Positions 3,137 to 20,445 of a DNA stretch of 52,452 nucleotides are shown here, in pieces. The DNA comes from a virus (taxonomy: Duplodnaviria; Caudoviricetes), in the IMG/VR virus record IMGVR_UViG_3300042923_000082, positions 1 to 52,452 of that record, one strand, 5' to 3'. Position 1 is the first letter of the stretch. Each line of letters starts with the position of its first letter. The position numbers and the translations under genes are program-made. The notes below the pieces were generated by a model. The model was not told the DNA's origin and ran no database searches. It saw only the letters and a program-made list of their open reading frames with translations.

Positions 3137-3149
3137 GACGTGATTCAAA

Positions 3150-4895
3150 ATGGCACTAAATAATACTGCGGTTCCCATCTACTATGGACAATTTAGAGAT
3201 TCTGTAATACGTGGAGAGATACCAGTATGTAAAGAAATTGCCATGGAGATGAATCGTATAGATGATCTTATAGATAATCCTGGAATTTACTATGATGACG
3301 AAGCAGTTGAAGGATTCATACTATACTGTAATGAGGAGTTAACCCTTACTGATGGTTCGCCTATGCAATTACTAGATACGTTTAAACTATGGGCCGAACA
3401 AATATTCGGTTGGTATTATTACGTTGAGAAAAGTATTTATGTGCCTAGCTCGGATGGTCATGCTCCTGGAAGATATGAGAAGAGACGAGTTAAGAAGCGT
3501 CTTATAAATAAACAATATCTGATAGTAGCTAGAGGTGCAGCAAAATCCATGTATGCCGAGTGTATACAAAACTACTTTCTCAATGTTGACACTTCAACAA
3601 CTCATCAGATAACCACAGCCCCAACTATGAAACAAGCGGAAGAAGTAATGGCTCCGTTTCGAACCTCGATTATACAAAGTCGTGGACCATTATACAAGTT
3701 CTTAACTGAAGGTTCCATACAAAATACTACAGGTAGTAAAGCAAATAGACAAAAGTTAGTGGCTACTAAGAAGGGTATAGAAAACTTTCTTACTGGATCA
3801 CTGCTAGAAGTAAGACCAATGACTATTAATAAATTGCAGGGGCTGAGACCCAAAGTAACCACGATTGATGAATGGTTATCTGGAGACATTAGAGAAGACG
3901 TCGTTGGTTCAATAGAACAAGGAGCTTCAAAAGTTGATGACTGGTTAATAGTCGCTATAAGTTCAGAAGGTACAGTTCGTAATGGAGCTGGAGATACAAT
4001 CAAAATGGAGTTAGCCGACATACTAAAAGGCGATTATATAAATCCCCATGTTAGTATTTGGCATTATAAAATGGACAGTCTTGAAGAAATTAACAATCCT
4101 GATCTATGGTCTAAGGCTAATCCTAATTTAGATAAGACCGTATCATACGAGACATATCAATTAGATGTTGAACGAGCTGAAAATGCTCCAGCTTCTAGAA
4201 ATGATATATTAGCGAAACGTTTCGGAATACCTATGGAAGGATTAACATACTTCTTTACTTACGAAGAAACACTCCCACACAAACATAGAGAATACTGGCA
4301 ACTACCATGCGCTCTTGGTGCCGATTTATCTCAAGGAAATGACTTCTGTGCATTCACGTTTATGTTCCCACTTAACGATGGTAGTTTTGGCATTAAGACA
4401 AGAGCTTACATAACAAATTTAACGTTATCTAAGTTACCATCAGCAATGAGATTTAAATACGACCAATTCGTAGAGGAAGGTTCATTAATTGTTTTAGAAG
4501 GAACTATGTTGGAGATGGAAGAAGTATATGACGATCTAGATAATCATATAATTGCTTGCGATTACGATGTGAGATGTTTTGGGTATGACCCATATAATGC
4601 TAAATATTTTGTCGAAAGATGGGAAATTGAAAATGGATCATTCGGAATAGTTAAAGTTATACAAGGAGCTAAGACTGAATCAGTTCCACTTGGAGAATTA
4701 AAGAATCTAAGTGAGGAACGAATGCTATTATTTGATGAAGATTTAATGTCATTCACCATGGGTAACTGTATAACACTAGAAGATACGAATGGTAATAGAA
4801 AATTATTAAAGAAACGGAACGAGCAAAAGATAGACTGCGTGTCAGCTATGATGGATGCTCTCGTAGCTTATAAACTAAATAAAGATGCTTTTTAG
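3150..4895 (+). CDS. terL: Terminase large subunit
   Basis: Walker A-like ARGAAKS, Walker B TIDE, nuclease GADLS and KIDCVSAMMDA. Confidence 0.93.
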   Translation: MALNNTAVPIYYGQFRDSVIRGEIPVCKEIAMEMNRIDDLIDNPGIYYDDEAVEGFILYCNEELTLTDGSPMQLLDTFKLWAEQIFGWYYYVEKSIYVPSSDGHAPGRYEKRRVKKRLINKQYLIVARGAAKSMYAECIQNYFLNVDTSTTHQITTAPTMKQAEEVMAPFRTSIIQSRGPLYKFLTEGSIQNTTGSKANRQKLVATKKGIENFLTGSLLEVRPMTINKLQGLRPKVTTIDEWLSGDIREDVVGSIEQGASKVDDWLIVAISSEGTVRNGAGDTIKMELADILKGDYINPHVSIWHYKMDSLEEINNPDLWSKANPNLDKTVSYETYQLDVERAENAPASRNDILAKRFGIPMEGLTYFFTYEETLPHKHREYWQLPCALGADLSQGNDFCAFTFMFPLNDGSFGIKTRAYITNLTLSKLPSAMRFKYDQFVEEGSLIVLEGTMLEMEEVYDDLDNHIIACDYDVRCFGYDPYNAKYFVERWEIENGSFGIVKVIQGAKTESVPLGELKNLSEERMLLFDEDLMSFTMGNCITLEDTNGNRKLLKKRNEQKIDCVSAMMDALVAYKLNKDAF

Positions 4896-4911
4896 AAAGG
4901 AGGTATTCACA

Positions 4912-5376
4912 ATGCAAATATATAACGACGAACAACTCTATCACTTTGGCATCAAAGGTATGCACTGGGGTAAACGAAAATACGACGGTCATACATTAAC
5001 TGATAAAGAAAAAAAAGGAGTATCAAAAGAATACACATCGAATATGAAGAAAGCCACTAACAATATAAAAAAACAAGAATTGGATATCCATGTTAAATCA
5101 TATAATAAAGCCGCTAATAATATGAATAATGGCGGTATTGATAAATTTAATAAACAACAAGAAAAAAAATACGGATCAAATTATATGAATAGAAAAGATT
5201 ATGAGAATGATTATATGAAGTTATTCGATAGCACATACTCTAAATACAGAACTGAAACTGTAAGTAATTTACTTAAAAATGATAAAAATTTTAAAGAAGG
5301 TCAAAAATTAGTTGATAAATATAAGATGCTTGAATGGGATAAATTAGCTAAAGATAATCAACAATTTATTAAATAA
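4912..5376 (+). CDS. Hypothetical protein with QLYHFGIKGMHWG leader, between terL and portal
   Basis: SD AGGAGG before ATG 4912 (better start than 4885); MQIYNDEQLYHFGIKGMHWG. Confidence 0.75.
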   Translation: MQIYNDEQLYHFGIKGMHWGKRKYDGHTLTDKEKKGVSKEYTSNMKKATNNIKKQELDIHVKSYNKAANNMNNGGIDKFNKQQEKKYGSNYMNRKDYENDYMKLFDSTYSKYRTETVSNLLKNDKNFKEGQKLVDKYKMLEWDKLAKDNQQFIK

Positions 5377-5383
5377 TAGAAAG

Positions 5384-6736
5384 GTGAGTAATATGGGAAT
5401 TAAAGATAGACTCCAGCATGCCTGGAATGCGTTTACAAACCGAGATCCAACAGATAATTATAGATACTCAGGTGAATACAGTAGTTCATATAGACCAGAT
5501 AGACCTAGATTGTCTAGAGGTAATGAACGTTCTATTGCTACATCGGTATTCAATAGAATTGCTATGGATGCTGCTGCTATAAACATGAGTCATGCTAAGA
5601 TAGATCAAAATGGAAGGTTTATGTCTTATGTGAATTCAGGTTTAAATAATTGTTTAACTTTGGAAGCTAATAAAGATCAAACAGGTAGAGCTTTTATACA
5701 AGATGTAGTATTATCTATGTTAGATGAAGGTTGTGTAGCTATAGTTCCAGTAGATACAAATATCAATCCTGCTAATTCAGCAAGTGTTGACATAGAGACT
5801 ATGAGAGTTGGTAAAATAAAAGAATGGTATCCTAATCATGTTCTTGTAGAATTATATAACGACCATACTGGTATAAAACAAGATATTAAGTTGGCTAAGA
5901 GTACTATAGGAATTGTCGAAAACCCTTTGTATGCGGTTATAAATGAACCAAATAGTACTCTTCAACGATTAATTCATAAACTGGTATTATTGGATAGTGT
6001 TGATAATCAGAGTTCATCTGGCAAATTAGACATGGTAATTCAGTTACCTTATGTTATTAAAACGGATGCTAGGAGAAGAGAAGCTGACAAACGAAAGAAG
6101 GATCTAGAAGATCAATTAGCTGGATCTAAGTATGGTATAGGTTATATAGACGGTACTGAAAAGATAACTCAATTGAATAGACCAGTAGAAAATAATCTAA
6201 TGTCACAAATAGAATATTTAACGAGTATGCTTTACGGCCAGTTAGGTATAACTACAAGTGTTTTAGATGGTACTGCCGATCCAAAGGTGATGCTTAACTA
6301 TTTCAATAGAACCGTAGAACCTATACTATCAGCTATATCTGACGAAATGAAGAGAAAGTTTCTAAGTAAAACTGCTAGAACACAAGGTCAATCTGTTATA
6401 TTCATTAGAGATCCATTTAAATTATTACCATTAGATAACTTAGCAGAAATAGCTGATAAATTCACTAGAAACGAAATAGCATCAGCTAACGAGATACGTC
6501 AAGTAATAGGTATGCAACCATCTAGCGATCCTAAAGCTGATAAGTTACAAAATTCAAACATGCCTCAACCACCAGAATCTCAAATGACGCCTACTGATGA
6601 TCAAACCAAAACATCTGGCGGAATAGATATGGAAGCTGAGAGAACAAAGATACTAAATGATGTATTGGATTCTTTAGAAGGTGAAATCGATAACATAATT
6701 CAAAATGTGTCAGGTGGTGATTCTAATGAATCATGA
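5384..6736 (+). CDS. Portal protein
   Basis: 450 aa after terL; HK97-like portal features (NRIAMD, LTLEAN, NEIRQVIG). Confidence 0.88.
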   Translation: MSNMGIKDRLQHAWNAFTNRDPTDNYRYSGEYSSSYRPDRPRLSRGNERSIATSVFNRIAMDAAAINMSHAKIDQNGRFMSYVNSGLNNCLTLEANKDQTGRAFIQDVVLSMLDEGCVAIVPVDTNINPANSASVDIETMRVGKIKEWYPNHVLVELYNDHTGIKQDIKLAKSTIGIVENPLYAVINEPNSTLQRLIHKLVLLDSVDNQSSSGKLDMVIQLPYVIKTDARRREADKRKKDLEDQLAGSKYGIGYIDGTEKITQLNRPVENNLMSQIEYLTSMLYGQLGITTSVLDGTADPKVMLNYFNRTVEPILSAISDEMKRKFLSKTARTQGQSVIFIRDPFKLLPLDNLAEIADKFTRNEIASANEIRQVIGMQPSSDPKADKLQNSNMPQPPESQMTPTDDQTKTSGGIDMEAERTKILNDVLDSLEGEIDNIIQNVSGGDSNES

Positions 6737-7565
6737 TGAGATCCGAAATTTAGTTAATGGTCTATTTAATACTGAATTGAAACATTATGCATCGGATTAT
6801 TATGATCCAGAAAAAGCACATGAATATTATCTACAGAATCGTAAACTAAAGGGTAGAACCACTAGTGGATTATCAGATGAAGGTAAAGAAGTATGGACTG
6901 ACACCAAGGCTAATATAACTGCTAAAAAGAAAAGTGAAATAAATGAGTATAAAAAACAAGAAGAAATAGACATACAGAATGCAAGATCTAAAGCCGAAGC
7001 TACTAGAATATCAATAACTAACAAATTAAAAAGTTTAAATGATATGTTAAATTCCAAATATAAAACTAATACTGAAGGACTAACAAAATCGCAAAAGGAA
7101 CAGTTAGAAGTAATAGCTAGACAAAGAGCTCAAGAACAAAAGCAAATACAAGCCTCAAAACAAAGAAAAATAGAAAAAATAAATAAGGATGATGATTTAT
7201 CTGATGAAGAAAAAGCTTCTAAAAAAGAAGGAATAAACGAAAATTATAGTGAAGATTTACAAGAAGTTAAAGAAGAGTATAGTAAAAAAGCAGAAGAAAC
7301 TAGAACTGAAGTATCAAAAGAACGTCAAAAATTATCATCAGATAAGAAAATAGAGTCTACTAAAAATTCAGAAGAGTCTAAAACAGAAAGAACAAAGGTA
7401 GCTTCAGAATTAAAGAGTGCTATACAAACTGCTCGTGATACGTATTCTAAAAATAAAGAATCATTAAATTCGTCTTATGAAGATATTTATCAGGATGAAT
7501 ATGATGAAATAAAATCACAATATCAATCTACTAAAAAAAGTAGAAAAAGTAGAAAAAATAAATAG
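6726..7565 (+). CDS. Highly charged coiled-coil protein with NTELKHY motif (putative internal head protein)
   Basis: SD GGTGG before ATG 6726; NTELKHYASDYYDPEKAHEYY; K/E-rich. Confidence 0.65.
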   Translation: MNHDEIRNLVNGLFNTELKHYASDYYDPEKAHEYYLQNRKLKGRTTSGLSDEGKEVWTDTKANITAKKKSEINEYKKQEEIDIQNARSKAEATRISITNKLKSLNDMLNSKYKTNTEGLTKSQKEQLEVIARQRAQEQKQIQASKQRKIEKINKDDDLSDEEKASKKEGINENYSEDLQEVKEEYSKKAEETRTEVSKERQKLSSDKKIESTKNSEESKTERTKVASELKSAIQTARDTYSKNKESLNSSYEDIYQDEYDEIKSQYQSTKKSRKSRKNK

Positions 7566-7576
7566 GAGGATGAGAA

Positions 7577-9280
7577 ATGAAATACGATTTCAGTGGATGG
7601 GCCACCAAGAATAATTTAAAATGTTCTGATGGATTAACAATAATGCAAAATGCTTTTCAAGATAATGATGGTAGAACAGTTCCTTTAATTTGGAATCACA
7701 GGCATAATGAGGCCAGCAATGTTTTAGGACATGCTATGTTAGAAAATCGTGAAGACGGGGTATATGCCTACTGTACATTTAATAATACTCCATCTGCAAA
7801 TGATGCAAAAGACATGGTTAAGCATGGAGATATAAAATCGTTATCAATATATGCTAATCAATTAAAAAAACAAGGTTCTTATGTAATGCATGGTCAAATA
7901 AGAGAGGTATCACTCGTATTAGCTGGAGCTAATCCTGGTGCCTATATAGATGATGTTATGGTTCACGGCTTACTTCAAAATGATGCTGGTATATTATATA
8001 CTGGAGAAGAAATTGAATTAAGTCACAGCGATAATGAAAAAGAAGGGGATGCTAAAAAAGTGGAAAATCAATCAAGTGAAAAAACAATTCAAGAAGTGTT
8101 TGACACTTTCAATGAAGAACAAAAAAATGTAGTATATGCTATAGTAGGAGCTGCTGTGGAAGAAGAAAAAACTAAAAATACAGAAATACAACAATCAAAT
8201 ATTGATGATAAAGGTGGAGAAGAAATGAAACATAACGTATTTAACAAAGAAGATAACACACAAGGTGATGTATTATCACATGCTGAAATAGCAACAGTAC
8301 TTTCAGATGCTAAAAGATATGGTAGTTTAAAAGATGCAGTATTAGCTCATGGAATAACTAATATAGATTATTTATTCCCAGATTTCAAAAATGTTACTGA
8401 TGTTCCTGGATTTATTCAAAGACAAAATACTTGGGTTGATGGTGTATTAGCCTCAGTTCATCATACTCCATTCGCTAGAATCAAATCAACTTATGCTGAT
8501 ATAACTGCTGATGATGCTAGAGCTAAAGGTTATATTAAAGGTAATTTAAAGAAAGAAGAAGTATTCTCATTATTAAAGAGAACTACATCACCAACTACAA
8601 TCTACAAGAAACAAAAGCTTGATAGAGATGATGTTGTAGATATAACTGATTTCGATGTTGTAGCATGGTTAAAGACAGAAATGAGAATGATGCTTAATGA
8701 AGAAATTGCAAGATCTGTATTGATAGGAGATGGTAGATTATCATCTAGTGATGATAAAATCAATGAGCAAAATATTAGACCTGTTTGGACTGATGCTGAT
8801 CTATACACTATAAAAACTGCTTATGACGATAAGTTACTAACAACTGATGATGCTAAAGCTAAAACATTTATTAGAACTGCAGTTAAAGCCAGAAAAGATT
8901 ATAAAGGTTCTGGTCAACCAACTCTATACACAACTGAAGACATGCTAACTAATATTTTATTAATGGAAGATACTACTGGTAGAACAATATATGAGAGTGT
9001 TGATAAAGTTAAATCTGCATTAAGAGTTAGTGATATCGTTACAATTCCGTCTATGGAATCTTTAACTAGAGTAGATGGAGCAATCACTAAAACACTAGAA
9101 GGAATAATTGTAAATCTTGTAGATTATAACATTGGTGCTGACAAGGGCGGAGCTGTTAACCTGTTCGACGACTTCGATATCGATTACAATGCTCAAAAAT
9201 ACTTAATTGAAACTAGATGTTCAGGGGCTTTAATTAAACCATATGCAGCTATAGCTGTTGAATCTTTTACATCGGTTTAA
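7577..9280 (+). CDS. Prohead protease-scaffold-major capsid fusion protein
   Basis: HK97-type protease motifs PLIWNH-x-H, SLSI, EVSLVLAGANPGA; acidic linker; capsid-like C-terminus (EEIARSVLIGDG, KYLIETRCSGAL). Confidence 0.9.
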   Translation: MKYDFSGWATKNNLKCSDGLTIMQNAFQDNDGRTVPLIWNHRHNEASNVLGHAMLENREDGVYAYCTFNNTPSANDAKDMVKHGDIKSLSIYANQLKKQGSYVMHGQIREVSLVLAGANPGAYIDDVMVHGLLQNDAGILYTGEEIELSHSDNEKEGDAKKVENQSSEKTIQEVFDTFNEEQKNVVYAIVGAAVEEEKTKNTEIQQSNIDDKGGEEMKHNVFNKEDNTQGDVLSHAEIATVLSDAKRYGSLKDAVLAHGITNIDYLFPDFKNVTDVPGFIQRQNTWVDGVLASVHHTPFARIKSTYADITADDARAKGYIKGNLKKEEVFSLLKRTTSPTTIYKKQKLDRDDVVDITDFDVVAWLKTEMRMMLNEEIARSVLIGDGRLSSSDDKINEQNIRPVWTDADLYTIKTAYDDKLLTTDDAKAKTFIRTAVKARKDYKGSGQPTLYTTEDMLTNILLMEDTTGRTIYESVDKVKSALRVSDIVTIPSMESLTRVDGAITKTLEGIIVNLVDYNIGADKGGAVNLFDDFDIDYNAQKYLIETRCSGALIKPYAAIAVESFTSV

Positions 9281-9283
9281 TAG

Positions 9284-9598
9284 ATGCCTAAGTGCTCTGG
9301 TATTATAGGTTATGCTCTGGCTGTGGAAACTCAGCCTGGAGTGTGGACCGAAAGTATAACTGAGAAGACGTATTATGGGGACGTTGTAAAAGACAATAGA
9401 AGAATAGTCGATCAAAGTCAAATAAATGATAATTTAAACATAAGTAACAATATAAGTGTAGTATGTAATTCGTTTATGTTTAAAAATATGGCATTCATGA
9501 AGTTTATAACATTCATAGGTTCAAAATGGGAGATATCTTCAGTTGATATCAAACCTCCTAGGATAATTATAACGATTGGAGGTATATATAATGAGTGA
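9284..9598 (+). CDS. Head closure / head-tail adaptor
   Basis: Position after the capsid gene; ETQPGVW...YYGDV...KWEISSVD. Confidence 0.65.
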   Translation: MPKCSGIIGYALAVETQPGVWTESITEKTYYGDVVKDNRRIVDQSQINDNLNISNNISVVCNSFMFKNMAFMKFITFIGSKWEISSVDIKPPRIIITIGGIYNE

Positions 9599-9893
9599 AA
9601 GAATTAAGATACATGATTTATTACTATCAATAGGTGGACCTAATGTATATCTTCAGGCGCCTAGTAATATATTTATGAAATACCCAGCTATTAAATATGA
9701 AGAAAATAAAATAGAAAATATTCATGCCAATGATTTGGTGTATTATCAAAAGAAATCATATACAATAACAGTTATTAGTAAAGATGTAAATGAAAACATA
9801 GTATACCTTGTATCAAAACTTCCACAGTGTAGTTTTGATAGACGATATGTTAAAGACAATCTTTACCATAGTGTATTTGATATGTATTATTAA
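9591..9893 (+). CDS. Tail terminator-like protein
   Basis: Position before the major tail gene; NVYLQAP...MKYPAIKY; SD GGAGG. Confidence 0.6.
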   Translation: MSERIKIHDLLLSIGGPNVYLQAPSNIFMKYPAIKYEENKIENIHANDLVYYQKKSYTITVISKDVNENIVYLVSKLPQCSFDRRYVKDNLYHSVFDMYY

Positions 9894-9905
9894 GGAGGAA
9901 AATAA

Positions 9906-10862
9906 ATGTCTAAATTAGTTTGGGACGAAATGGGAAAACGTTTATACGAAACAGGAGTAAAAATGGGGGTTCTTTACCCTTGGCAAAACTCGGGTTTATA
10001 TTCTAAAGGAGTTGCTTGGAATGGTTTAACAACTGTTACAGAAAGTCCTTCAGGAGCTGAGGCATCACCACAATATGCAGATGACATAAAATATTTGAAC
10101 CTTATATCTGCAGAAGAATTCGGAGCTACGATAGAAGCTTTCACATATCCAGATGAGTTTGCAGTTTGCGATGGGTCATTAGAAATAGAAACTGGAGTAA
10201 TTATCGGTCAACAAAGCCGTAAGTCATTTGGACTTAGTTATAGAACTACACTAGGTAATGATGTCGATGGAACTGATCATGGATATAAACTTCATCTTAT
10301 ATATGGTGCGTTAGCTGCTCCATCTGAGAAAGGATATGCTACTATTAATGATTCTCCAGAAGCTATAACTTTCTCATGGGAAGTTACTACTACACCTGTG
10401 GCAGTAACAGGATTCAAACCAACTGCTTCTTTAGTTATAGACTCAACTAAGGTTGATTCAGCTAAACTTGCTGCTTTGGAACTAATTCTATATGGTAATA
10501 CAGGAGTTGATGCTCGTTTACCTTTACCTGATGAGATTGCTTCTATATTTGCAGCAGCAGCACCAACTGCTTTAACTGTGACAGTCGATCCAGCAGATGA
10601 AGAAACTGGAGTATTAGTTTCTGATAATGTAGTGTTAACATTTAATAATAAAATAAGTGAAGAAAGTATCATAGTTACTTCATCAGTCGGAGCATTGATA
10701 CCTGTAGTTAAGACTTGGGATATTACAGGAAAAATATTGACTATTAATCCTACAGGTGACTTCTCTGCTGCTACTATGTACTTAGTTACTATAGTAGGAG
10801 TTATAGACGTATACAATCAATCACTTGCGCCATCTGTTATTAACTTTACAACTGCAGTCTAG
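9906..10862 (+). CDS. Major tail protein with C-terminal Ig-like domain
   Basis: GVAWNGL, QYADDIKY, ITFSWE motifs; C-terminal beta-rich Ig-like segment (VVLTFN...INFTT). Confidence 0.9.
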   Translation: MSKLVWDEMGKRLYETGVKMGVLYPWQNSGLYSKGVAWNGLTTVTESPSGAEASPQYADDIKYLNLISAEEFGATIEAFTYPDEFAVCDGSLEIETGVIIGQQSRKSFGLSYRTTLGNDVDGTDHGYKLHLIYGALAAPSEKGYATINDSPEAITFSWEVTTTPVAVTGFKPTASLVIDSTKVDSAKLAALELILYGNTGVDARLPLPDEIASIFAAAAPTALTVTVDPADEETGVLVSDNVVLTFNNKISEESIIVTSSVGALIPVVKTWDITGKILTINPTGDFSAATMYLVTIVGVIDVYNQSLAPSVINFTTAV

Positions 10863-10871
10863 TCAAAATGG

Positions 10872-10899: not shown

Positions 10900-10926
10900 A
10901 TTATAAATAAGGAGGACTTTTAAATT

Positions 10927-12033: not shown

Positions 12034-12573
12034 ATGTTTCAACTTGTTATACCTGATCTCGAAAGCTATGATGAAGGCAAGGGTGAATTTATAAATGTCA
12101 AAGGACAAACTATACAAGTTGAACATTCACTCGTCTCACTTTCAAAATGGGAATCAAAATGGCATAAGCCTTTCCTAGGCAAAGAACATAAAACTACCGA
12201 AGAAACTATAGATTATGTTAAGTGTATGACCATAACTCAAAACGTTAAACCAGAGATTTATAACAATATAACTAATAATAATATTGAAATGATTAGCGAG
12301 TACATAGCTGCTACTATGTCCGCGACCACTTTCAATGATACTAATGACAAACCACAGAATGAGATAATAACATCTGAAATAATTTACTACATGATGATAA
12401 TATATAATATACCATTAGAATGTCAAAAATGGCATCTAAATAGACTTCTGACTCTGATAAGAGTATGCGGACATAAAAATAATCCAAATAAAAAGATGTC
12501 AAGGTCTGAGATAATTAATAGAAATAGGGATTTAAATAACAAAAGAAGACAACAATTAAACAGTAATGGGTAA
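12034..12573 (+). CDS. Tail assembly chaperone (second)
   Basis: EHSLVSLSKWESKWHKPFL, WHLNRLLTLI; position upstream of the tape measure gene. Confidence 0.65.
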   Translation: MFQLVIPDLESYDEGKGEFINVKGQTIQVEHSLVSLSKWESKWHKPFLGKEHKTTEETIDYVKCMTITQNVKPEIYNNITNNNIEMISEYIAATMSATTFNDTNDKPQNEIITSEIIYYMMIIYNIPLECQKWHLNRLLTLIRVCGHKNNPNKKMSRSEIINRNRDLNNKRRQQLNSNG

Positions 12574-12587
12574 GGAGGAATTACATA

Positions 12588-12965
12588 ATGATAACATTTG
12601 GTAACAAAGGTGATTTCTCAAAAACATTAGATTTTTTAAATAATACATCCAAAAATAAGATAACAAGAATACTAGACAAATACGGTAACGAAGGTGTTGA
12701 AATACTTTCAAAAAATACACCATTAGATTCGGGAGTAACTTCTTCATCTTGGTATTATAAGATCGAAACAGTTAAGGGTAAGGCAACTATATCCTGGTTT
12801 AATTCTAATGTTGTAAATGGAGTGCCAATCGCCATAATATTACAATATGGTCATGGTACTCAAAATGGTGGTTATGTTGCAGGAAGGGACTATATTAACC
12901 CTGCAATGAAACCACTGTTTGATAAAATTGCAAATCAAGTATGGAAGGAGGTTATTAATAAATGA
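12588..12965 (+). CDS. HK97 gp10-like tail completion protein
   Basis: TPLDSG...LQYGHGT...DYINPAM motifs. Confidence 0.75.
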   Translation: MITFGNKGDFSKTLDFLNNTSKNKITRILDKYGNEGVEILSKNTPLDSGVTSSSWYYKIETVKGKATISWFNSNVVNGVPIAIILQYGHGTQNGGYVAGRDYINPAMKPLFDKIANQVWKEVINK

Positions 12966-15900
12966 GTAGTATCGACGAACGAATCTTATCGATGAAGTTT
13001 GATAATAAACAATTTGAAAGCGGTGTCGCTACTAGTATGAACACCCTAAATGGTCTTAAGAAAGGATTAGATCTTTCAGGATCAGCTAAGGGACTAGAAT
13101 CTATTAACGATGCTGCAAAAAGAGTAAGTTTTGATGGAATGGCGAACAGTATTGAATCAGTAAAGGTTAAATTCTCAGCACTTCAAGTTATCGCTGTAAC
13201 AGCTCTGTCTAATATAGCAAACTCAGCTGTAACTGCTGGAAAGAATCTTATATCGTCATTAACTATCGATCCAATAATGGAAGGTTTCAAGGAATATGAA
13301 ACTCAGATGAATGCCATACAAACCATATTAGCTAATACATCAACTAAAGGTACTACTCTAGTTGAAGTAAAAGCCGCTTTACAAGAACTTAATACCTACT
13401 CCGATAAAACCATTTATAATTTCACTGAGATGAGTAAAAATATTGGTACTTTCACTGCGGCTGGCGTAGACTTAAAAACATCAACTGCAGCCATTAAAGG
13501 TATAGCTAATTTAGCGGCTGTATCCGGATCAAATTCTCAACAAGCATCGACAGCTATGTATCAACTCTCTCAGGCATTAGCTGCCGGTAGAGTAAACTTA
13601 CAAGACTGGAACTCAGTTGTTAACGCCGGTATGGGTGGTGCCGTATTTCAAAATTCATTAAAAGAAACTGGTAAATTAATGGGTAAGAATATAGATGAGT
13701 CCCAATCGTTCAGAGATTCTATTAGTGATAAAGATGGAACCGGTTGGTTAACATCTGACGTTCTAATAGCCACTCTTCAAAAATTTACTGGTGATATGAC
13801 TGCTTCTGAATTAGCAGCTAAAGGTTACACACAAACTCAAATAGAGTCTATAATCAAAATGGGTCAGACTGCTAACGACGCTGCTACTAAAGTTAAGACG
13901 TTTACTCAATTACTTGACACTCTAAAAGAAGCAGTTGGATCAGGATGGGCTCAAACTTGGCAAACTTTATTTGGAGACTTTGAAGAAGCTAAAGTAATGT
14001 TTACTGATGTAAGTAATGTTCTAGGTGGAATTATAGGTGCCTCATCTAAGGCTCGTAATGATATGCTTACTGGATGGAAAGACTTAGGTGGTCGAACTGC
14101 ATTGATTGATGCTATTAAAAACGCATTCGATGGTGTTATGAGTGTAGTAACTACTCTTAGTGGTGCATTCAGAGATATATTTCCAGCTACAACATCAGCT
14201 CAATTATTCAGTTTCACAGAGGGTTTAAAAAGTCTAACTGAAAACTTTAAGTTCAGCGAAACAACACTATCAAATCTTAGATCAACATTCAAAGGAGTCT
14301 TTGCTATATTAGATATAGGTAAGACAATATTTCTAGCAGTGGCTAATGCCATAGGAATAATGCTAGGAGGAGTTGGAGATCTCGGTTCAAGTATATTAGG
14401 TTTGACTGGATCTTTAGGAGAGTGGTTTACGGCTTTAGACAACTCTATTAAAAAGTCTGATGTCTTTAATAAAGTATTAACTGCTCTAGCATATGGCATT
14501 AAAAATGCCTTCAGTTCAATAGCATTTGTATTTGACTTAGTAGTAAAAGGAATGCAGAAAGTTATTGCTGTTATAAGTGAAAAGATAAGTTTACCTTCAT
14601 TTGAAGACATACAAGCATTCTTAGAACTACTAGGTAAGAGAATGACTAGCATTAGTAATGAAGCCGATGGTATGAAAACAGTAATAAGTGGAGCTTTCGT
14701 TGGTATCGCCAAATCAATTGCTGATAGTAAGATTGGTGAATTATTCACTGCGATATGGAACACAGTTAAAGTAGTCTCAGATAGTATTGGAACTTTAGTT
14801 GGTAAAATGGCAGATTCAATTACTAAAGCATTTAGCAACGCTAACTTTAGTGGTATGTTTGATGCTATAGCCGGAGTATCAATAGGTGCAGTGGCTATAT
14901 CAATTAGTAAATTCTTAAAGAGTTTAACTGAACCATTACACGGCTTACAAGGAATGATAGATGGTGTTACTGGTATTCTTGATGGTGTTAGAGGTAGCTT
15001 CGAAGCTTACCAACAAAATTTAAAAGCTGGTATTTTACTTAAATTAGCAATGGCTATAGGTATACTTGCAGCATCAATTGTAGCAATATCACTAATAGAC
15101 TCAGGAAAATTGACTAGTTCACTTGCTGCAATAGGAACTTTATTTGCACAATTATTAATTGCAATGAAATTATTTACAACTATAGGTGAATTTAAAGGCG
15201 GAGTTATTAAAGCTAGTATAGTTATGATAACCATGTCAACAGCTATTCTTATATTATCAACCGCTATGGCCAAACTTGCAACTTTGGATTGGAATGGTAT
15301 TGCTAAAGGAACTGTTGGTATTGCAGCTTTGTCTGGAACATTAGTAGCGACTTCTAAATTACTATCTACTGGTAGCGGATCAATGATTAAAGGATCAGCA
15401 GGAATTGTAGCCTTTGCTTTGGCTATAAAAGTATTAGCTTCAGCCTGTGCCGACCTATCTAAACTAAGTTGGAACGAACTAGCTAAAGGTTTGACTGGAG
15501 TAGGAGTATTACTTGCTGAAATATCAGTATTCCTAAACACTGCTAAATTTAGCGCTAAGTCGACGTTAACTGCAACGGGTATTGTTATATTAGCAGCTGC
15601 TATGAAAGTATTAGCTTCAGCCTGTGCTGACTTTGGAAATTTATCCTGGTCTGAAATAAGTAAAGGGTTGATTAGTATAGGAGTATTACTTGGAGAATTA
15701 TCATTATTTTCTAATATTACAGGTAATGCTAAAAATGTTATATCTACAGGTGTTGCTCTAATCGCTATTGCTGCGGCTATGAAAATATTAGCTTCAGCTA
15801 TGGCTGACTTTGGTCGTATGTCTTGGTCTGAAATAGCTAAGGGATTAGTGGCGATGGGCGTGGCTTTAACTGAGATATCAATAGCTGTAAAATTAATGCC

Positions 15901-17587
15901 TAAAAACATCGCAGTTACAGCATCTGGATTAGTTATTATGGGTGGTGCTTTAATATTAATAGCTGATGCACTTAAAAACATGGGTAGTATGTCCTGGGAA
16001 GAAATAGCTAAAGGTTTAATTACTATGGGTGGAGCTTTAACTATTCTATCTATAGCGTTATCGTCAATGACTGGGTCGCTTGCCGGGTCTGCAGCATTAT
16101 TAGTTGCAGCAGGAGCATTAATGATATTAGCACCAGCGTTGTCTATGCTTGGAGCTATGACATGGGAAAGTATAATTAAAGGTCTTGTAGATTTAGCAGC
16201 TACAATAGCTATATTTGCAATAGCCGCAGCAGTATTAACTCCGATACTTCCATCTATGCTTGGTTTGGGAGCAGCTTTGGTTTTACTAGGGGTATCTATG
16301 ATTGGTATAGGTGCTGGTTTAGCATTAGTTGGTGTAGGTTTGTCAGGGGTAGCAGCAGGGTTTATATTATTGGCTGGCGTTACAGCTACAGGTGCAACTG
16401 CTATTGTTACAGCATTAGGAATTATAATAATAGGTGTAGCTGCATTGATACCTCAAGTTATGGCTAAAATTGGCGAAGGTATAATAGCGTTCTGTAAAGT
16501 ATTATCTGATGGTATACCTACAATAGTAGCCACAATAACTACTATAATAGCAGCCATCGTAGATTGTATAGTTACAAATATACCAGTAATACTAAACGGA
16601 GTGTTAACAACACTATCATCTATACTTGATGCTTTAATAACTTGGATTCCAACTATAAGTCAGAAAGTTGCAGATATAATACTTGCCCTATTAAAAGTTA
16701 TAGCAGATAATATACCTAAATTCGTAAAGGCTGGGGTAGACATAATAGTTGGATATATTCAAGGGATTACTGATAGTTTACCTAAGGTTATAGACGCAGC
16801 AGCTAAATTAATTGTTAGTTTTATAAATGGATTAGCTGATGCTGTCGATGCTAACGCAGGACCAATGGGAGATGCGTGTTTAAAATTAGTAAAAGCTATA
16901 GTAGATGGCATACGTTCACTAGAAGATAAGTTCATAGACGCTGGTATATATGCAGTACAAGGATATATAAAAGGATTAGCAAGTATGCCTGGAAAGATAT
17001 GGGATGCTGGAGCAGCATTAGGTAATGAAGCACTTGCAGCAGCTAAAAAAGCATTGAAAGAGCATTCACCATCTAGAGAATTTAAACAAGTTGGAGTTTA
17101 CGCAGGTGAAGGTCTTGTTATAGGTCTTAATAATATGGGAACTAAAGTGTCTAATGCTGGATATGATATGGGATCTAATGCTCTCGACTCGATGTCAAAC
17201 TCTATTGCTGGCATTACAGATGTTATTAATAGTGACATAGATTCACAACCGGTTATACGACCAGTTTTAGATTTAACAGACATTCAAAATGGAAGTAACA
17301 AATTATATAGTATGATGAATGGTATAGACAATTATGGAATAGACAGTTCTATAAATTCAGTTAGTTCAACTGCTAGGAGTATACAAAGTAAACAGGTTGT
17401 TAATGAACCTATTAATAATGGAGGTACTAATTTAGCAACTACAAATAACCCAACAACATCGAAACAACCAATGGCAATACAACTAGTATTACAAAATGGA
17501 AAGGCTATTGCTGAGTACATAATTGATGATGTAGATAATTTAATGGGTGTTAAAAATAACTTTACAGGAAGGATGGTTGGATCATGA
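12962..17587 (+). CDS. Tape measure protein
   Basis: 1541 aa, Ala/Gly/Ile-rich periodic repeats (SWxEIAKGL), N-terminal tape-measure domain, HSPSR motif. Confidence 0.93.
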   Translation: MSSIDERILSMKFDNKQFESGVATSMNTLNGLKKGLDLSGSAKGLESINDAAKRVSFDGMANSIESVKVKFSALQVIAVTALSNIANSAVTAGKNLISSLTIDPIMEGFKEYETQMNAIQTILANTSTKGTTLVEVKAALQELNTYSDKTIYNFTEMSKNIGTFTAAGVDLKTSTAAIKGIANLAAVSGSNSQQASTAMYQLSQALAAGRVNLQDWNSVVNAGMGGAVFQNSLKETGKLMGKNIDESQSFRDSISDKDGTGWLTSDVLIATLQKFTGDMTASELAAKGYTQTQIESIIKMGQTANDAATKVKTFTQLLDTLKEAVGSGWAQTWQTLFGDFEEAKVMFTDVSNVLGGIIGASSKARNDMLTGWKDLGGRTALIDAIKNAFDGVMSVVTTLSGAFRDIFPATTSAQLFSFTEGLKSLTENFKFSETTLSNLRSTFKGVFAILDIGKTIFLAVANAIGIMLGGVGDLGSSILGLTGSLGEWFTALDNSIKKSDVFNKVLTALAYGIKNAFSSIAFVFDLVVKGMQKVIAVISEKISLPSFEDIQAFLELLGKRMTSISNEADGMKTVISGAFVGIAKSIADSKIGELFTAIWNTVKVVSDSIGTLVGKMADSITKAFSNANFSGMFDAIAGVSIGAVAISISKFLKSLTEPLHGLQGMIDGVTGILDGVRGSFEAYQQNLKAGILLKLAMAIGILAASIVAISLIDSGKLTSSLAAIGTLFAQLLIAMKLFTTIGEFKGGVIKASIVMITMSTAILILSTAMAKLATLDWNGIAKGTVGIAALSGTLVATSKLLSTGSGSMIKGSAGIVAFALAIKVLASACADLSKLSWNELAKGLTGVGVLLAEISVFLNTAKFSAKSTLTATGIVILAAAMKVLASACADFGNLSWSEISKGLISIGVLLGELSLFSNITGNAKNVISTGVALIAIAAAMKILASAMADFGRMSWSEIAKGLVAMGVALTEISIAVKLMPKNIAVTASGLVIMGGALILIADALKNMGSMSWEEIAKGLITMGGALTILSIALSSMTGSLAGSAALLVAAGALMILAPALSMLGAMTWESIIKGLVDLAATIAIFAIAAAVLTPILPSMLGLGAALVLLGVSMIGIGAGLALVGVGLSGVAAGFILLAGVTATGATAIVTALGIIIIGVAALIPQVMAKIGEGIIAFCKVLSDGIPTIVATITTIIAAIVDCIVTNIPVILNGVLTTLSSILDALITWIPTISQKVADIILALLKVIADNIPKFVKAGVDIIVGYIQGITDSLPKVIDAAAKLIVSFINGLADAVDANAGPMGDACLKLVKAIVDGIRSLEDKFIDAGIYAVQGYIKGLASMPGKIWDAGAALGNEALAAAKKALKEHSPSREFKQVGVYAGEGLVIGLNNMGTKVSNAGYDMGSNALDSMSNSIAGITDVINSDIDSQPVIRPVLDLTDIQNGSNKLYSMMNGIDNYGIDSSINSVSSTARSIQSKQVVNEPINNGGTNLATTNNPTTSKQPMAIQLVLQNGKAIAEYIIDDVDNLMGVKNNFTGRMVGS

Positions 17588-18303
17588 ACACATTAATGTC
17601 TGGTTTAAGAGGATTTACATTTAATGGTAAACATAATAACGATGTTGGAGTGGTTATGCATAATAAATCAATCCAATCTCCTCCTAAGAAAAAGATAAAG
17701 GATTCAGTTCCTTTTATGAATGGTAGTTATGACTTTAGTACAATAGGAAGTAATGGTGAAATAGTTTATTCAGAACGAGAAATAACTATAGTTTTAGGTT
17801 TACCAGCAGAAACTAAAGAGAGGTTGCAAGTATTATACTCCACAACACTAGAATGGTTAGTAGATGTTGGTAAACAAAAATTAGTGTTTGATGTTATAAA
17901 AGATTACTATTTTATGGCTGAAGTAGAAGAAACAAGTTCGTTTGAAGAGACTATGGAATTCGGTAAATTAGAAATAAAATTTGTAGTTGATCCTTTTAAG
18001 TCTTCAGTAGACTATGTCGGAGTAAATATATGGGACACTTTCAATTTCGAAGAAGATTATTTACAGGATTCTGGTTATGATGTAGTTGGTTCTAAAACAA
18101 TAACCCTTTATAACCCTGGAAGGACTGTAAGACCAATCATAAATTGTAATGCTCCTATGACACTTATTCAAAATGGAAAGAGTTATGATTTAGTAGTTGG
18201 TGATAATAAGTTATATGGATTCTATTTAACTAACTTAGCTAATACTCTAACCATTAATGGAACTGGGAGAATTAACTTTATATTTAGAAAGGAGAGTATA
18301 TAA
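17584..18303 (+). CDS. Distal tail protein (Dit)
   Basis: Directly after the tape measure gene; FTFNG...VPFMNGSYDFS. Confidence 0.8.
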   Translation: MNTLMSGLRGFTFNGKHNNDVGVVMHNKSIQSPPKKKIKDSVPFMNGSYDFSTIGSNGEIVYSEREITIVLGLPAETKERLQVLYSTTLEWLVDVGKQKLVFDVIKDYYFMAEVEETSSFEETMEFGKLEIKFVVDPFKSSVDYVGVNIWDTFNFEEDYLQDSGYDVVGSKTITLYNPGRTVRPIINCNAPMTLIQNGKSYDLVVGDNKLYGFYLTNLANTLTINGTGRINFIFRKESI

Positions 18304-19979
18304 TGTATAGGATGTCAATATTTAATAATAATGTTGAAACTATTGTACATTTTCCAAGTGCAAATATAGATGACCCACATGTGCAAAAAATGGCATTAAA
18401 AGAAGGACTATCAGTAGTAGATACTCTCACTTTCTCTTTATATGCTACTAACCAAGGATATGATAAAGTATTTGAATTAACTACAAGAGTAAAGGTATTA
18501 GATGTTAGGGATAACTCTATTAGATTTACTGGTAGAATATTAGATATAAATAATAAAATGGATAGCTCTGGTGTAGTATATAAAGAAATTACGGCTGAAG
18601 GAGCATTAAGTTTCCTAAATGATACTAAATTAAGAGGTAGTTCATTTTATGCTGATAATGTTACAGGATTTCTATCACAGATTTTAGGAGTTCATAATTC
18701 TAAAGTCGAATCTGGAAAACAAATACAAATAGGTAATGTGGATATACCTGGTAATGTAATTCATACATGCGAGTTTAAAACTACATTTTCTGAGATAATA
18801 GCAGTAAAGGAAAAACTTGGTGGTCAGATAAGAATAAGGGAAGTAAACGATATACTATATATGGACTGGTTACAATCCTTTAGTGATACCGTTTTGGAAG
18901 TAAGTTTAGGTGTTAACATGAAAGATATGATAGTTAGTAAAGACGTTACTAGTCTTGGCACTAGAATCATACCTATAGGAGCTAATAATTTGACTATAGA
19001 ATCAGTAAATGGTGGTTTAGATTATTTAGAAGATGCTGGGGCTAAAGCAATATATGGTGTTATTGAGAAAACGGTAGAATATAGAGATATAGAGGACGCT
19101 ACAATATTAAGGAATACTTGTATATCTGGAATATCTGAGCATACTCAACCATCGTATATACTAACAAGTAATGCTTTAGATTTAAGTTTCCTGTCAGGTA
19201 ATAAGGCTGAACAATTTGCGTTAGGTGTAAAACTACATTTATTAAATCGTTTTATGGGTGTGGATTCTATTTATAGTATTGTCAATATTGATTTAGATTT
19301 ATTAGAACCATATAATCCTAATCTAACCATATCCAAAAAACCAGTAACGTTGTCGACGGCTATTAATGATTTAAGAAAATCCTCTATTCAAAATAATGGT
19401 GTTTATAACAATGTTCAAATTGGCAGTGCATATGGTATTAGAGCAGTTAGAAGTGATAATAAAGTCGTAACTACTATGAACGCAACTGAGGGTATAAGCA
19501 TAGAAAATCAAAATCAGAAAGTATTCTATGTCGATATTAATGGTAAATTAGTAGCTGTCGATATAACAGCACAAGGTGGAACATTTGATAATATTACAGT
19601 TAACCAAGGAACGTTTAATGATATAACTGCACAAGGTGGAACATTTGATAGTATTACAGCTACAGGTGGTTTAACAATTCAAGATAATTCAGCTTCATGT
19701 ACTATAAATTCCTCAGGTGTACATTTAGTTGGTTCATCCGGAGCAATAGCGGACGTAGAAATTATAGAGGATGGTTCCCACACAGGAGTAAATATCCCAG
19801 ATGATTTATATGTTCAAGATGTATTACGTGTTTTCGGTAAGCTTAATGCAGAGGCCGACGCTCGTTTTTATGCTAATGTAAAGATAAATGGAACTTTAAC
19901 TTTAGATGATGTTACTTTGGATGATTATGTTAATGACCTAATACACGATTACAGCGTAGCTCATAATTGGGAAACTTAG
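18303..19979 (+). CDS. Tail-associated baseplate hub / Tal-like protein
   Basis: After Dit; FTGRI, TRIIPIG, YGVIEK motifs; C-terminal 10-aa repeats. Confidence 0.78.
   Translation: MYRMSIFNNNVETIVHFPSANIDDPHVQKMALKEGLSVVDTLTFSLYATNQGYDKVFELTTRVKVLDVRDNSIRFTGRILDINNKMDSSGVVYKEITAEGALSFLNDTKLRGSSFYADNVTGFLSQILGVHNSKVESGKQIQIGNVDIPGNVIHTCEFKTTFSEIIAVKEKLGGQIRIREVNDILYMDWLQSFSDTVLEVSLGVNMKDMIVSKDVTSLGTRIIPIGANNLTIESVNGGLDYLEDAGAKAIYGVIEKTVEYRDIEDATILRNTCISGISEHTQPSYILTSNALDLSFLSGNKAEQFALGVKLHLLNRFMGVDSIYSIVNIDLDLLEPYNPNLTISKKPVTLSTAINDLRKSSIQNNGVYNNVQIGSAYGIRAVRSDNKVVTTMNATEGISIENQNQKVFYVDINGKLVAVDITAQGGTFDNITVNQGTFNDITAQGGTFDSITATGGLTIQDNSASCTINSSGVHLVGSSGAIADVEIIEDGSHTGVNIPDDLYVQDVLRVFGKLNAEADARFYANVKINGTLTLDDVTLDDYVNDLIHDYSVAHNWET
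19560..19670 (+). repeat. Intragenic 30-nt period tandem repeat encoding DITAQGGTFD/NITVNQGTFN/DITAQGGTFD/SITATGG
   Basis: GATATAAC(A/T)GCACAAGGTGGAACATTTGATA occurs twice, 60 nt apart. Confidence 0.85.
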
Positions 19980-19995
19980 AAGGAGGTGATTCAAA

Positions 19996-20445
19996 ATGGC
20001 TAATGTAACAGAAAAAGTCGCATCAATAAGACAAGCCGTTTATGGAAAAGATGTAAGAGAAAGTATAGCCAGTGGTATAGAAGCTATTAATGACGAAGTA
20101 GTTAGCACCACATCAAGACAGAATGTAATCGACTCACAGGAACAAACAAGAATAAATAATGAAAATATAAGACAATCTCAAGAAGCTAGTAGACAATCTC
20201 AAGAATCTGTTAGAACAAATATTTTTAATACCAATGAAGATGCTAGAGAAGCCACGTTTAATACTAATGAAAATAATAGACAAGATATATTCTCAACAAA
20301 TGAAGTGGATAGAGATGCAACAATTGCACAATTTCAAAATTGGTATAATACATCATCACTAACTGGGAAATTACCATTTATGATAGATGGTGGGGATTTT
20401 GGAGACCCTATAGAAGGGGGCGTTTATGATGGTGGAGATTTTTAA
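19996..20445 (+). CDS. Minor tail/baseplate protein with coiled-coil repeats
   Basis: IRQAVYGKDVRESI; (N/Q)E-x-x-R heptad-like repeats; DGGDF twice at the C-terminus. Confidence 0.65.
   Translation: MANVTEKVASIRQAVYGKDVRESIASGIEAINDEVVSTTSRQNVIDSQEQTRINNENIRQSQEASRQSQESVRTNIFNTNEDAREATFNTNENNRQDIFSTNEVDRDATIAQFQNWYNTSSLTGKLPFMIDGGDFGDPIEGGVYDGGDF

Follow-up and report, generated by a model that had tools for sequence, protein, structure and literature searches.

The late promoters of phage phiKZ are described in PMC7598289 as consisting only of 5'-T(-3)ATG(+1), all four letters of which are required. The single-chain two-barrel enzyme YonO transcribes the late genes of SPbeta, according to PMC5467207, and PMC10770324 reports that the Thermus phage P23-45 polymerases gp96 and gp64 each have their own repeated motif. 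Start-associated sequences have been described in cluster K mycobacteriophages and cluster EF Microbacterium phages (PMC7302621). A supercluster of phages is described in 10.1101/842583, which presents a DxDGD protein flanked by helix-turn-helix (HTH) motifs as a signature gene and a possible RNA polymerase; section 11 of that text gives this polymerase as the sole transcription protein in its listed conserved core, and a term search of the text found neither "promoter" nor "repeat". Here, we analyzed a phage of this supercluster (1706 / FP_oengus / Arthrobacter AM / Gordonia DJ / Streptomyces BI), the virus record IMGVR_UViG_3300042923_000082, whose 52,452 bases are referred to as the window, and in particular the nine-letter word TCAAAATGG, to which an earlier note had drawn attention. 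We found the word to be a real strand-specific signal under nucleotide-level selection, and we tentatively propose that it is a short late or internal signal for transcription initiation.

Occurrence of the word in the window

An exact search of both strands revealed exactly 12 copies of TCAAAATGG in the window, 12 on the + strand and 0 on the - strand, spanning positions 3145 to 19999; past 19999, no exact copy was found on either strand. The earlier note had placed at least 12 copies at these coordinates on the + strand only and none in the 24-52 kb half, and the count agrees on each point. Shuffles of the window that preserved dinucleotides (n = 100, both strands) gave a mean of 0.77 copies and a maximum of 3, and Markov models predicted 0.49 (order 1), 0.80 (order 3) and 1.68 (order 5) copies on the + strand, so that the enrichment survived the Markov null as well. 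Among the 9-mers of the window, TCAAAATGG ranked fourth, tied at 12 copies; the 9-mers that were as frequent or commoner were pure A/T words or pieces of another repeat. The 8-mer TCAAAATG was present in 14 copies, every one of them between 3 and 20 kb. Additionally, the 27 possible one-mismatch variants of TCAAAATGG amounted to 18 copies in total on the + strand, and the word is a sharp one with few near-variants.

The copies occupied all three reading frames and intergenic sequence, as had been claimed: three encoded SKW, four QNG and two IKM, two placed their ATG on the start codon of a gene and one was intergenic (Table 1). The further claim that codon choice does not explain the word was examined by 1000 shuffles of synonymous codons within each gene, in which the three copies outside the shuffled codons stayed fixed. 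In the late region, the shuffles gave a mean of 5.34 copies (standard deviation 1.25, maximum 9) compared with the 12 observed, and about 2.3 copies were expected among the nine coding copies. In the early region, every shuffle gave 0 copies, because the peptides able to carry the word, SKW, QNG and [FLIV]KM[VADEG], never occur in early proteins (0, 0 and 0, compared with 4, 5 and 3 in late proteins). Since these peptides are confined to late proteins, the proteins appear to have been shaped by the DNA word rather than the word by the proteins.

Conservation of the word in relatives

The word was found in all 38 records of uncultured relatives (capsid 47-75% identical), with 3-21 copies in each. 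As evident from the strand counts, 413 of these copies lay on the strand of the capsid gene and 7 on the other, and the word read backwards, used as a control, occurred 28 times in all across the same records. It was also present in all seven GenBank records, six of which are named phages of Actinobacteria and Firmicutes, with 50 copies versus 1 by strand (+/-: FP_oengus 17/1; Circum 4/0; P162 6/0; Tanis 5/0; Bing 2/0; BitterVaud1 5/0; MT835495 11/0). The single minus-strand copy of FP_oengus is antisense within an annotated endolysin gene. The strand exclusivity of the word was thus seen in 45 of the 45 relatives' records tested (38 uncultured and 7 GenBank), and 92 sequences (1.9 Mb, overlaps included) contained 496 versus 2 copies by strand. 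The G+C content of the relatives ranged from 32% to 59%, for which order-1 and order-3 Markov models predicted 0.08-1.3 copies per genome; the word was present even in genomes of 51-59% G+C, where 0.08-0.4 copies were expected, and it was the commonest 9-mer in FP_oengus and in the relatives G009 and G027. One-mismatch copies followed the same polarity, with 9 on the + strand versus 0 on the - strand in Bing and 21 versus 4 in Circum.

We found the identical word in phages of Arthrobacter, Gordonia, Streptomyces, Bifidobacterium, Lactococcus and Faecalibacterium. Since the same nine letters occur in phages of two bacterial phyla, a reader specific to a host lineage does not fit, and the sequence comparison points to a reader that is either phage-encoded or universal. 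A word read by the host, such as Chi, an uptake sequence or KOPS, was ruled out by the same cross-phylum identity. The genes lay all on one strand in 11 of 12 genomes, FP_oengus having two unconfirmed minus-strand open reading frames (ORFs) outside the checked annotated stretch; because the examined genomes are unidirectional, the polarity of transcription is inseparable from that of the genome. No published description of the word in phages was found in the openly licensed literature of PubMed Central and bioRxiv, where the 9-mer, in the papers listed as containing it and judged by titles and abstracts, was a primer, a spacer or otherwise unrelated. Short signals for phage polymerases are a known kind, but this word, its reach and its behaviour within genes are undescribed.

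Selection on the nucleotides themselves was most evident at the site at 12142, which encodes the peptide VSLSKWESK in a conserved protein whose gene lies between those of the major tail and tape measure proteins. In 57 distinct homologous contexts, the exact word was present in 39, including those of Streptomyces phage Bing and Arthrobacter phage Circum. The Ser codon within the word was TCA in 40 of 52 homologues, compared with 14 of 51 for the Ser two residues upstream and 11 of 36 for the Ser four residues downstream, and the Lys within the word was AAA in 50 of 56, compared with 33 of 41 for a control Lys. Bing, with a G+C content of 59%, has TCA AAA TGG at the SKW site. This conservation at synonymous sites in relatives, together with the codon shuffles and the strand counts in the window (12 versus 0) and in the relatives (413 versus 7), upholds the oriented signal that the earlier note had supposed, and likewise its view that codon choice is not the explanation.

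Flanks, placement and spacing of the copies

The flanks were compared in 384 unique contexts. The 5' flank was weakly A-rich, with A at -4 to -2 and T or A at -1, where C made up only 2%. Purines occupied the two positions 3' of the word in 69% and 75% of contexts (background about 55%), and 218 of the 384 contexts had a purine dinucleotide directly 3' of it. No -35-like or other distant element was found in the 384 contexts, and flank similarity ended about 3 nucleotides (nt) out.

Placement was analyzed for 122 copies in 12 genomes with simple gene calls of our own. The ATG of the word coincided with a called gene start in 23 of the 122 (19%), compared with 0.1% of random positions; 36% of copies were not fully within a called gene, compared with 8% of random positions; and the median distance to the next gene start was 270 nt, compared with 546 nt. 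Among distinct loci, the word recurred at the starts of the portal gene (26 of 66), the capsid fusion gene (31 of 64), the gene after the capsid gene (50 of 66) and TerL (6 of 55; FP_oengus has this placement, like the window), and it was at none of the starts of the major tail protein, tape measure and HNH genes. The window carried no copy at its portal, capsid and next-gene starts; instead, copies lay at +221 in the portal gene and +237 in the gene at 9284, whose homologue carries the word at its start or close to it in 50 of 66 distinct relatives. Copies therefore shift position while coverage is kept. A leaderless or start-site role was rejected as a general explanation, as 19% of copies stand at starts and copies have shifted by more than 200 nt into genes.

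The conserved TerL peptide GD(T/D)IKMEL carried the exact word in 7 of 12 genomes, and the remaining genomes differed by one change, often a synonymous one. In the closest relative, G001, the TerL sites were lost through single changes. The upstream context of 6 of the 12 window copies was like that of six copies in G001; it was the same for the copy at 9521 and similar for the copy at 12860. Two variants of the ninth letter, at 6700 and 7975, occupied the 3.9-kb gap between the third and fourth copies of the window. Overall, copies were spaced roughly evenly at 1.5-4 kb, and the gaps were more even than random, with a coefficient of variation below the null mean in 10 of the 10 genomes with enough copies (P<=0.03 in 4).

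Many copies were located in the spacer between a Shine-Dalgarno (SD) sequence and ATG, and a few in the loops of terminator hairpins. The latter were found in G009 (5371, 5813, 15782) and G027 (36169, 50814), as terminator-like hairpins with a 9-base loop equal to TCAAAATGA followed by a T-rich run. Such spacers and loops are the cheapest places for a 9-mer in coding sequence. Presentation in a hairpin as a general feature was rejected, since stems of at least 7 pairs flanked 4.2% of 212 copies of the 8-mer and 1.8% of controls.

In the window and 10 of the 12 whole genomes, the largest copy-free arc was 31-50 kb long; it began where the tail and lysis genes end, took in the replication and polymerase genes and stopped at about TerL. 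G020 and G027 had the word and its ninth-letter variant TCAAAATGA over almost the entire genome, often as SD+TCAAA+ATG where early genes start. The restriction to the late region that had been claimed earlier therefore held for the window and these 10 genomes and failed for G020 and G027; late-only placement is a rule, not a law.

A second motif class in the early region

The early region of the window contained 13 intergenic copies of an element of about 30 bases, aCGCGAAAATtACA-N5-cTATTATGAGAAAT, each 5' of an SD sequence and a start codon. In 11 of 12 genomes, the pattern CGC-N19-ATG-purine occurred 6-19 times on the + strand and 0-1 times on the - strand, mostly in intergenic sequence of the early region, and this architecture was found with fixed spacing in Gordonia, Streptomyces and Arthrobacter phages too. 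The exception was P162, which keeps the TTTTACA...CTATAATGAAA part without CGC. The spacing misfits a sigma-70 -35/-10 pair, and the element therefore looks phage-specific; judged from its sequence and position, it is probably a phage-specific early or middle promoter class. The early-class element and the 9-mer both end in ATG and purines, whereas their upstream parts differ (CGC-N7-AC-N10 versus TCAAA). Within the late region of the window, only position 12002 gave a match, a partial one, to the -10-like part, and the upstream CGC was absent there. A variant element, ACGCGAAAATTACAtgccctTTTATAGAGAGAA (48448-48482; ATA for ATG), heads the endonuclease-exonuclease-polymerase operon, which continues over the joined ends of the genome into the late genes, and five relatives (G001, FP_oengus, Circum, G023 and G027) have a standard element at the matching place. 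A 32-bp intergenic repeat in the early region of cluster AU phages is read as a recombination boundary in 10.1101/2020.01.10.891226, and may be a version of the early-class motif.

Two further kinds of element were observed in the early region. Between 47282 and 47570, five direct copies of TTGCCCACTTT and two inverted ones (AAAGTGGGCAAGTGGGCAAAGG) flank an A/T-rich stretch that lies close to the XRE gene and just 5' of the final early-class promoter; the arrangement looks like an iteron-type origin or an operator array. Additionally, seven terminator-like sites, each a hairpin plus GGCTCTTTCTTTT, were found, all of them early (25487, 25960, 27692, 40976, 45594, 47271 and 48099), and several run directly into an early-class promoter.

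The candidate reader

The 915-residue protein at the right end of the window, labeled RNA-dependent RNA polymerase by PHROG, was the sole long window protein with a DxDGD motif. The motif ADFDGD lies at residues 514-519 (DFDGD 515-519), and D515, D517, G518 and D519 did not vary among 61 aligned homologues. We also considered whether the tape measure protein might conceal a second polymerase, as in P23-45, and rejected this; the only other DxDGD-like match was in a 48-residue ORF. An AlphaFold model built from the 61-sequence alignment had a predicted local distance difference test score of 86.2 and a predicted template modeling (TM) score of 0.77. Foldseek searches with this model revealed similarity to QDE-1 (E 2.7e-10) and to P74-26 gp62 and P23-45 gp64 (E about 1.5e-7), with further matches to plant RDR2, P23-45 gp96 and the large subunits of cellular RNA polymerases; the TM-scores were low (0.27-0.42), the likeness being in the core and not over the whole chain. 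A sequence search of solved structures with the protein gave nothing meaningful, and Pfam gave only weak HTH matches at its C-terminus. The protein thus has the motif and, in the model, the fold of a single-chain two-barrel polymerase, which is its predicted activity. Its family comprised 2358 representative clusters at E<=0.001 and 940 at E<=1e-30. The polymerase was present in 11 of 11 mapped relatives at 36-81% identity and co-occurred with the word in all 11, and all 45 searched records carried the word on one strand. We infer that it is the best candidate reader of TCAAAATGG.

Four late proteins (163-579, 1695-2582, 2600-3136 and 4885-5376) share the peptide (L/Y)xHFGIKGM(K/R/H)WG, and Pfam scored DUF7211 in the three of these that were scanned. 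A variant of this tag, LEHYGTKKHSGRYKWGSG (HYGTK..GRYKWGSG versus HFGIKGMKWG), is located at the N-terminus of the polymerase, where it is invariant in the 61 homologues yet disordered in the model. The tag would be consistent with capsid targeting or cleavage; a literature search for proteomic studies of virions from a family member gave nothing relevant.

Genome and family

The window is a siphovirus genome in which PHROG scans of 74 ORFs placed every gene on the + strand (Table 1). The first and last 12 bases of the record are identical (ccctaaaaaatc; 1-12 and 52441-52452); the assembly is therefore circularly closed and probably complete, despite the completeness of 87% estimated by its source. 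Homologues of the capsid fusion were found in 257 phage records and those of the 915-residue protein in 251, mostly at 35-50% identity; carriers include Faecalibacterium phage FP_oengus, the Lactococcus 1706 group and phages of Arthrobacter, Gordonia, Streptomyces, Curtobacterium, Microbacterium, Rhodococcus and Bifidobacterium. No near-identical cultured phage was found by megablast of positions 3000-20000, which gave only one 7.8-kb fragment of 73% identity, and a tRNA scan found none. A look-up of sequencing runs matching positions 9301-19300 gave seven entries, all DNA and available as contigs, and listed no RNA.

Two HNH endonucleases, a RecB-type exonuclease and a 1340-residue primase-type/polymerase fusion belong to the core genes of the family. 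Paralogues include three phrog_2152 genes (26690-27412, 27956-28681 and 30020-30934) and two phrog_24451 genes (21626-22009 and 22148-22495), and a phrog_4079 gene (29103-29711) is followed by a short C-terminal copy of itself (29751-30002). Genes of nucleotide metabolism (24467-25247, 39620-40027 and 42015-42653) encode a MazG-like pyrophosphohydrolase, a dNMP kinase, a dCMP deaminase and a thymidylate-synthase-like protein, with which the phage may alter the nucleotide pool or its bases. Between the last and first genes lies a G/C-rich stretch, GGGGGAGGGGTC...CCCCC (52385-52452 and 1-30), and a similar one in G027 (about 61150-61197) has a loop containing TCAAAATGA; this end stretch may be part of a cos region or a terminator.

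Table 1. Copies of the word, its variants, early-class elements and annotated genes in the window (aa, amino acids)
Feature	Position	Strand	Context or annotation
Copy 1	3145..3153	+	ATG is the start codon of the TerL gene (3150-4895); SD-like GGACGTGAT just 5'
Copy 2	4000..4008	+	Within TerL, IKME of the conserved peptide GD(T/D)IKMEL
Copy 3	5605..5613	+	Within the portal gene, QNG, 221 nt past the start
Variant TCAAAATGT	6700..6708	+	ATG is the start codon of gene 6705-7565
Variant TCAAAATGA	7975..7983	+	Within the protease-capsid fusion gene; common variant in G020 and G027
Copy 4	9521..9529	+	Within gene 9284-9598 at +237, SKW, 55 nt 5' of gene 9576
Copy 5	10863..10871	+	Intergenic; abuts the stop codon of the major tail protein, 8-bp hairpin follows directly
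Copy 6	12142..12150	+	Family-conserved SKWE site, phrog_4338 gene between major tail and tape measure genes
Copy 7	12154..12162	+	Second SKW, 12 nt past copy 6
Copy 8	12860..12868	+	Within gene 12588-12965, QNG, 102 nt 5' of the tape measure start
Copy 9	13854..13862	+	Within the tape measure gene, IKM
Copy 10	17284..17292	+	Tape measure gene, QNG, 300 nt 5' of the Dit start
Copy 11	18168..18176	+	Dit gene, QNG, 135 nt 5' of the start of tail protein gene 18303
Copy 12	19991..19999	+	ATG is the start codon of gene 19996-20445, preceded by GGAGGTGAT
Early-class elements (examples)	25252-25282, 27415-27445, 47576-47606 (range 25270-47594)	+	CGC-N19-ATG-purine
HNH endonuclease	910	+	Late; PHROG
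TerL	3150	+	Late; PHROG
Portal	5384	+	Late; PHROG
Protease-capsid fusion	7577	+	Late; PHROG
Major tail protein	9906	+	Late; PHROG
Tape measure	12962	+	Late; PHROG
Dit, tail proteins, fibre		+	Late; PHROG
Holin	23300	+	Late; PHROG
Amidase	23602	+	Late; PHROG
Primase-type/polymerase fusion	32256	+	Early; 1340 aa; PHROG
Single-strand annealing protein		+	Early; PHROG
Helicase		+	Early; PHROG
dCMP deaminase		+	Early; PHROG
Thymidylate synthase		+	Early; PHROG
XRE regulator	48142	+	Early; PHROG
Second small endonuclease	48577	+	Early; PHROG
RecB-type exonuclease		+	Early; PHROG
Single-chain two-barrel RNA polymerase (predicted)	49396..52143	+	Early; 915 aa, PHROG 4291, DFDGD, C-terminal HTH

Discussion

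We propose, with a probability of roughly 0.4, that TCAAAATGG is a short late or internal transcription initiation signal. The word, with its weak A-rich 5' flank and its 3' purines, would form an initiator-type promoter core, and its reader would be the phage's single-chain two-barrel RNA polymerase, alone or with a small late cofactor. The many copies would then provide repeated entry points for transcription along the 17-kb unidirectional virion module, and coding tolerance would set the location of each copy, whether an SD-ATG spacer, a terminator loop or a gene interior. That the polymerase reads the word and that the act is initiation are both inferred, the latter by analogy with the phiKZ late promoters, in which the G of ATG is +1. 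We favor this proposal because a conserved phage-encoded reader is needed and the polymerase is the only conserved transcription protein; because precedents exist in the YonO late genes, the P23-45 motifs and the phiKZ TATG; because the ATG-purine core is shared and the copies are biased toward gene starts; and because the word is confined to a late module without another recognizable promoter.

Several observations weigh against initiation. The copies lie within genes in 64% of the 122 cases, in all three frames. If +1 is the G, a gene that starts at the ATG of the word, as for 19% of copies, would be unserved by that copy. Exact copies range from 2 per genome (Bing) to 21, and in G001 the first exact copy lies past the capsid gene, so exact copies are not the sole route of late-gene transcription; read-through from the variant promoter at 48450 across the joined ends could supply late RNA. 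As presented in PMC5467207, YonO uses one late promoter for a whole operon. The long early-class motif, which is also found across phyla, looks more like a classical phage-polymerase promoter, and the 9-mer would be left without an obvious separate reader. The even gaps and drifting positions fit a traveling machine better than promoters, the shared ATG core amounts to three letters and could be coincidence, and the tagged polymerase may be a virion enzyme that acts early.

A doubtful but serious alternative to initiation is that the word is a non-promoter polar "track" signal, of a kind undescribed for phages, read by a moving phage machine. This machine would be the elongating single-chain polymerase, an HNH nickase or the primase-polymerase; spacing rather than position would be preserved, and copies would drift between start codons, terminator loops and gene interiors. 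All nine letters are unchanged over two host phyla and a polymerase family that numbers more than 900 clusters (50% identity). Another reading, which we consider rather unlikely, is a processivity or antitermination signal. A single long late transcript would start 5', for example at a promoter before the HNH-exonuclease-polymerase operon, and cross the joined genome ends, and the copies, recognized in its nascent RNA or in the non-template strand, would reload or re-license the polymerase as ops does with RfaH. The restriction of the word to the coding (non-template) strand suits this reading, as do the even gaps in all ten genomes, the sites that shift by about 200 nt between relatives with spacing kept (portal and post-capsid starts in relatives versus +221 and +237 in the window), the copies in terminator loops of G009 and G027, and the early-class promoter just 5' of the HNH2-polymerase operon in five relatives, with its variant at 48450 in the window. 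However, no NusG/RfaH-like or Q-like factor was recognized by the PHROG scans or by Pfam scans of 8 ORFs, in which many small ORFs stayed unannotated; the 2 exact copies of Bing and 4 of Circum are too few to reload a polymerase periodically over late regions of more than 20 kb, unless degenerate copies count; and YonO is described in PMC5467207 as highly processive without such signals. A polar DNA site outside transcription is unlikely as well; it could be an HNH single-strand nick as in T5 or Pseudomonas phage tf, a site at which the primase-helicase-polymerase primes on the lagging-strand template, or a packaging or recombination signal. Strand exclusivity, absolute in the window and near-absolute in the family, would follow from it, along with the indifference to frame, the flexible positions and the even spacing. 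The family core supplies enzymes for it in the two HNH endonucleases, the RecB-type exonuclease and the primase-type/polymerase fusion, and with all genes on the + strand, a fork moving with transcription would make that strand the lagging-strand template. Priming is hard to reconcile with a word that, in the window and 10 of 12 genomes, stays within the virion module, since the other 30-50 kb would be without sites, and the early region lacks the minus-strand copies that bidirectional replication would predict.

At the level of late mRNA, UCAAAAUGG could be cleaved by an endoribonuclease under phage direction or bound by a factor for translation or stability, and could possibly be a start-associated sequence of the type known from cluster K mycobacteriophages; we regard this as very unlikely. 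The sense strand alone carries the word, gene starts are strongly over-represented among its copies (notably those of the portal, capsid and next genes), many early genes of G020 and G027 begin with SD+TCAAA+ATG, and a few copies sit in hairpin loops; but most copies are within genes in all frames, where their out-of-frame ATGs open short frames (2-14 codons for 7 window copies), and the window copies that moved more than 200 nt into the portal gene and the gene at 9284 kept the word, which defeats a start-site role. Moreover, a message cut at its start codon would be inactive, hairpin stems beside the copies are scarcely more frequent than in controls, and no conserved RNA-binding protein or RNase was recognizable in the PHROG and Pfam scans. 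That the word has no function and only reflects base composition, codon usage, conserved peptides or common descent has a negligible probability. Two sites do lie in conserved peptides (TerL IKME and SKWE) and half of the window copies have an upstream context similar to that of copies in G001, but this reading is contradicted by the dinucleotide, Markov and codon nulls, all of which were exceeded, by the strand counts in relatives and by the Ser-codon test; the word is also present in G+C-rich genomes where almost none is expected, with flanks dissimilar beyond about 3 nt. Two proposals of the earlier note fared poorly. An XRE protein is an unlikely reader, as XRE is not in the conserved core given in section 11 of 10.1101/842583 and the word is conserved across two phyla; and a checkpoint near the entering end is unlikely, as 3-8 kb separate the left end from the first copy in the records whose map begins at the phrog_4259/HNH end.

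If the word is a promoter, as we propose, it would rank with the shortest and best conserved of those known for any phage polymerase and could serve as a compact part for orthogonal expression in Gram-positive hosts; otherwise, it would be a new kind of polar genome signal. It also offers a simple marker by which the late strand and the late module of such phages can be recognized in metagenomic data. The supercluster spans phages of dairy Lactococcus and gut Faecalibacterium and hundreds of Actinobacteria phages and is defined by its predicted RNA polymerase; the word is a testable candidate for what this polymerase, or another conserved phage machine, reads.

Comparison with known systems

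The start-associated sequences of PMC7302621 are similar to the word in being conserved at many actinobacteriophage gene starts, with a role left undefined in that text; they are described there at the ribosome-binding site only, whereas the word has 19% of its copies at start codons and 64% within genes. YonO is likewise a single-chain two-barrel polymerase for late (structural and lysis) genes, and PMC5467207 leaves its promoter sequence undefined; it serves one operon from a single site, unlike the 2-21 copies of the word per genome in this family. The P23-45 enzymes described in PMC10770324 are also monomeric two-barrel phage polymerases, with two motif classes in one genome, and gp64 is a structural neighbor of the window's enzyme. 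In contrast, P23-45 has two polymerases compared with one DxDGD protein in the window, and its motifs stand 5' of mapped pre-early and early start sites, not within late genes. By fold, the enzyme of the window matched QDE-1 and P23-45 gp64, and YonO had no solved structure among the matches.

The late promoters of T4, TATAAATA, are read by gp55 and constitute an 8-9-bp oriented late element without a -35 part. They occur in many copies across the late genes, often within upstream coding sequence, as does the word here. Unlike the word, they involve the host polymerase with a phage sigma-like factor and are located 5' of ribosome sites, not on start codons. The RfaH ops element, Chi and the FtsK KOPS are short, strand-polar, over-represented words that are read in any frame by a moving machine or an elongating polymerase. 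Host enzymes read Chi and KOPS, which vary from one host phylum to another, whereas the word is identical in phages of Actinobacteria and Firmicutes, and no RfaH-like gene was seen in the PHROG and Pfam scans.

The non-virion RNA polymerase of phiKZ differs from the candidate reader in being multisubunit, and its motif, as described in PMC7598289, has four letters and is not predictable from sequence. The word, known here from sequence alone, has nine invariant letters, is at least 10-fold enriched and is found across phyla. The two systems are nevertheless alike in pairing a very short start-site element and late genes with a phage two-barrel enzyme (PMC7598289), and the ATG-plus-purine core is found both in the 9-mer and in the intergenic promoter class of this family.

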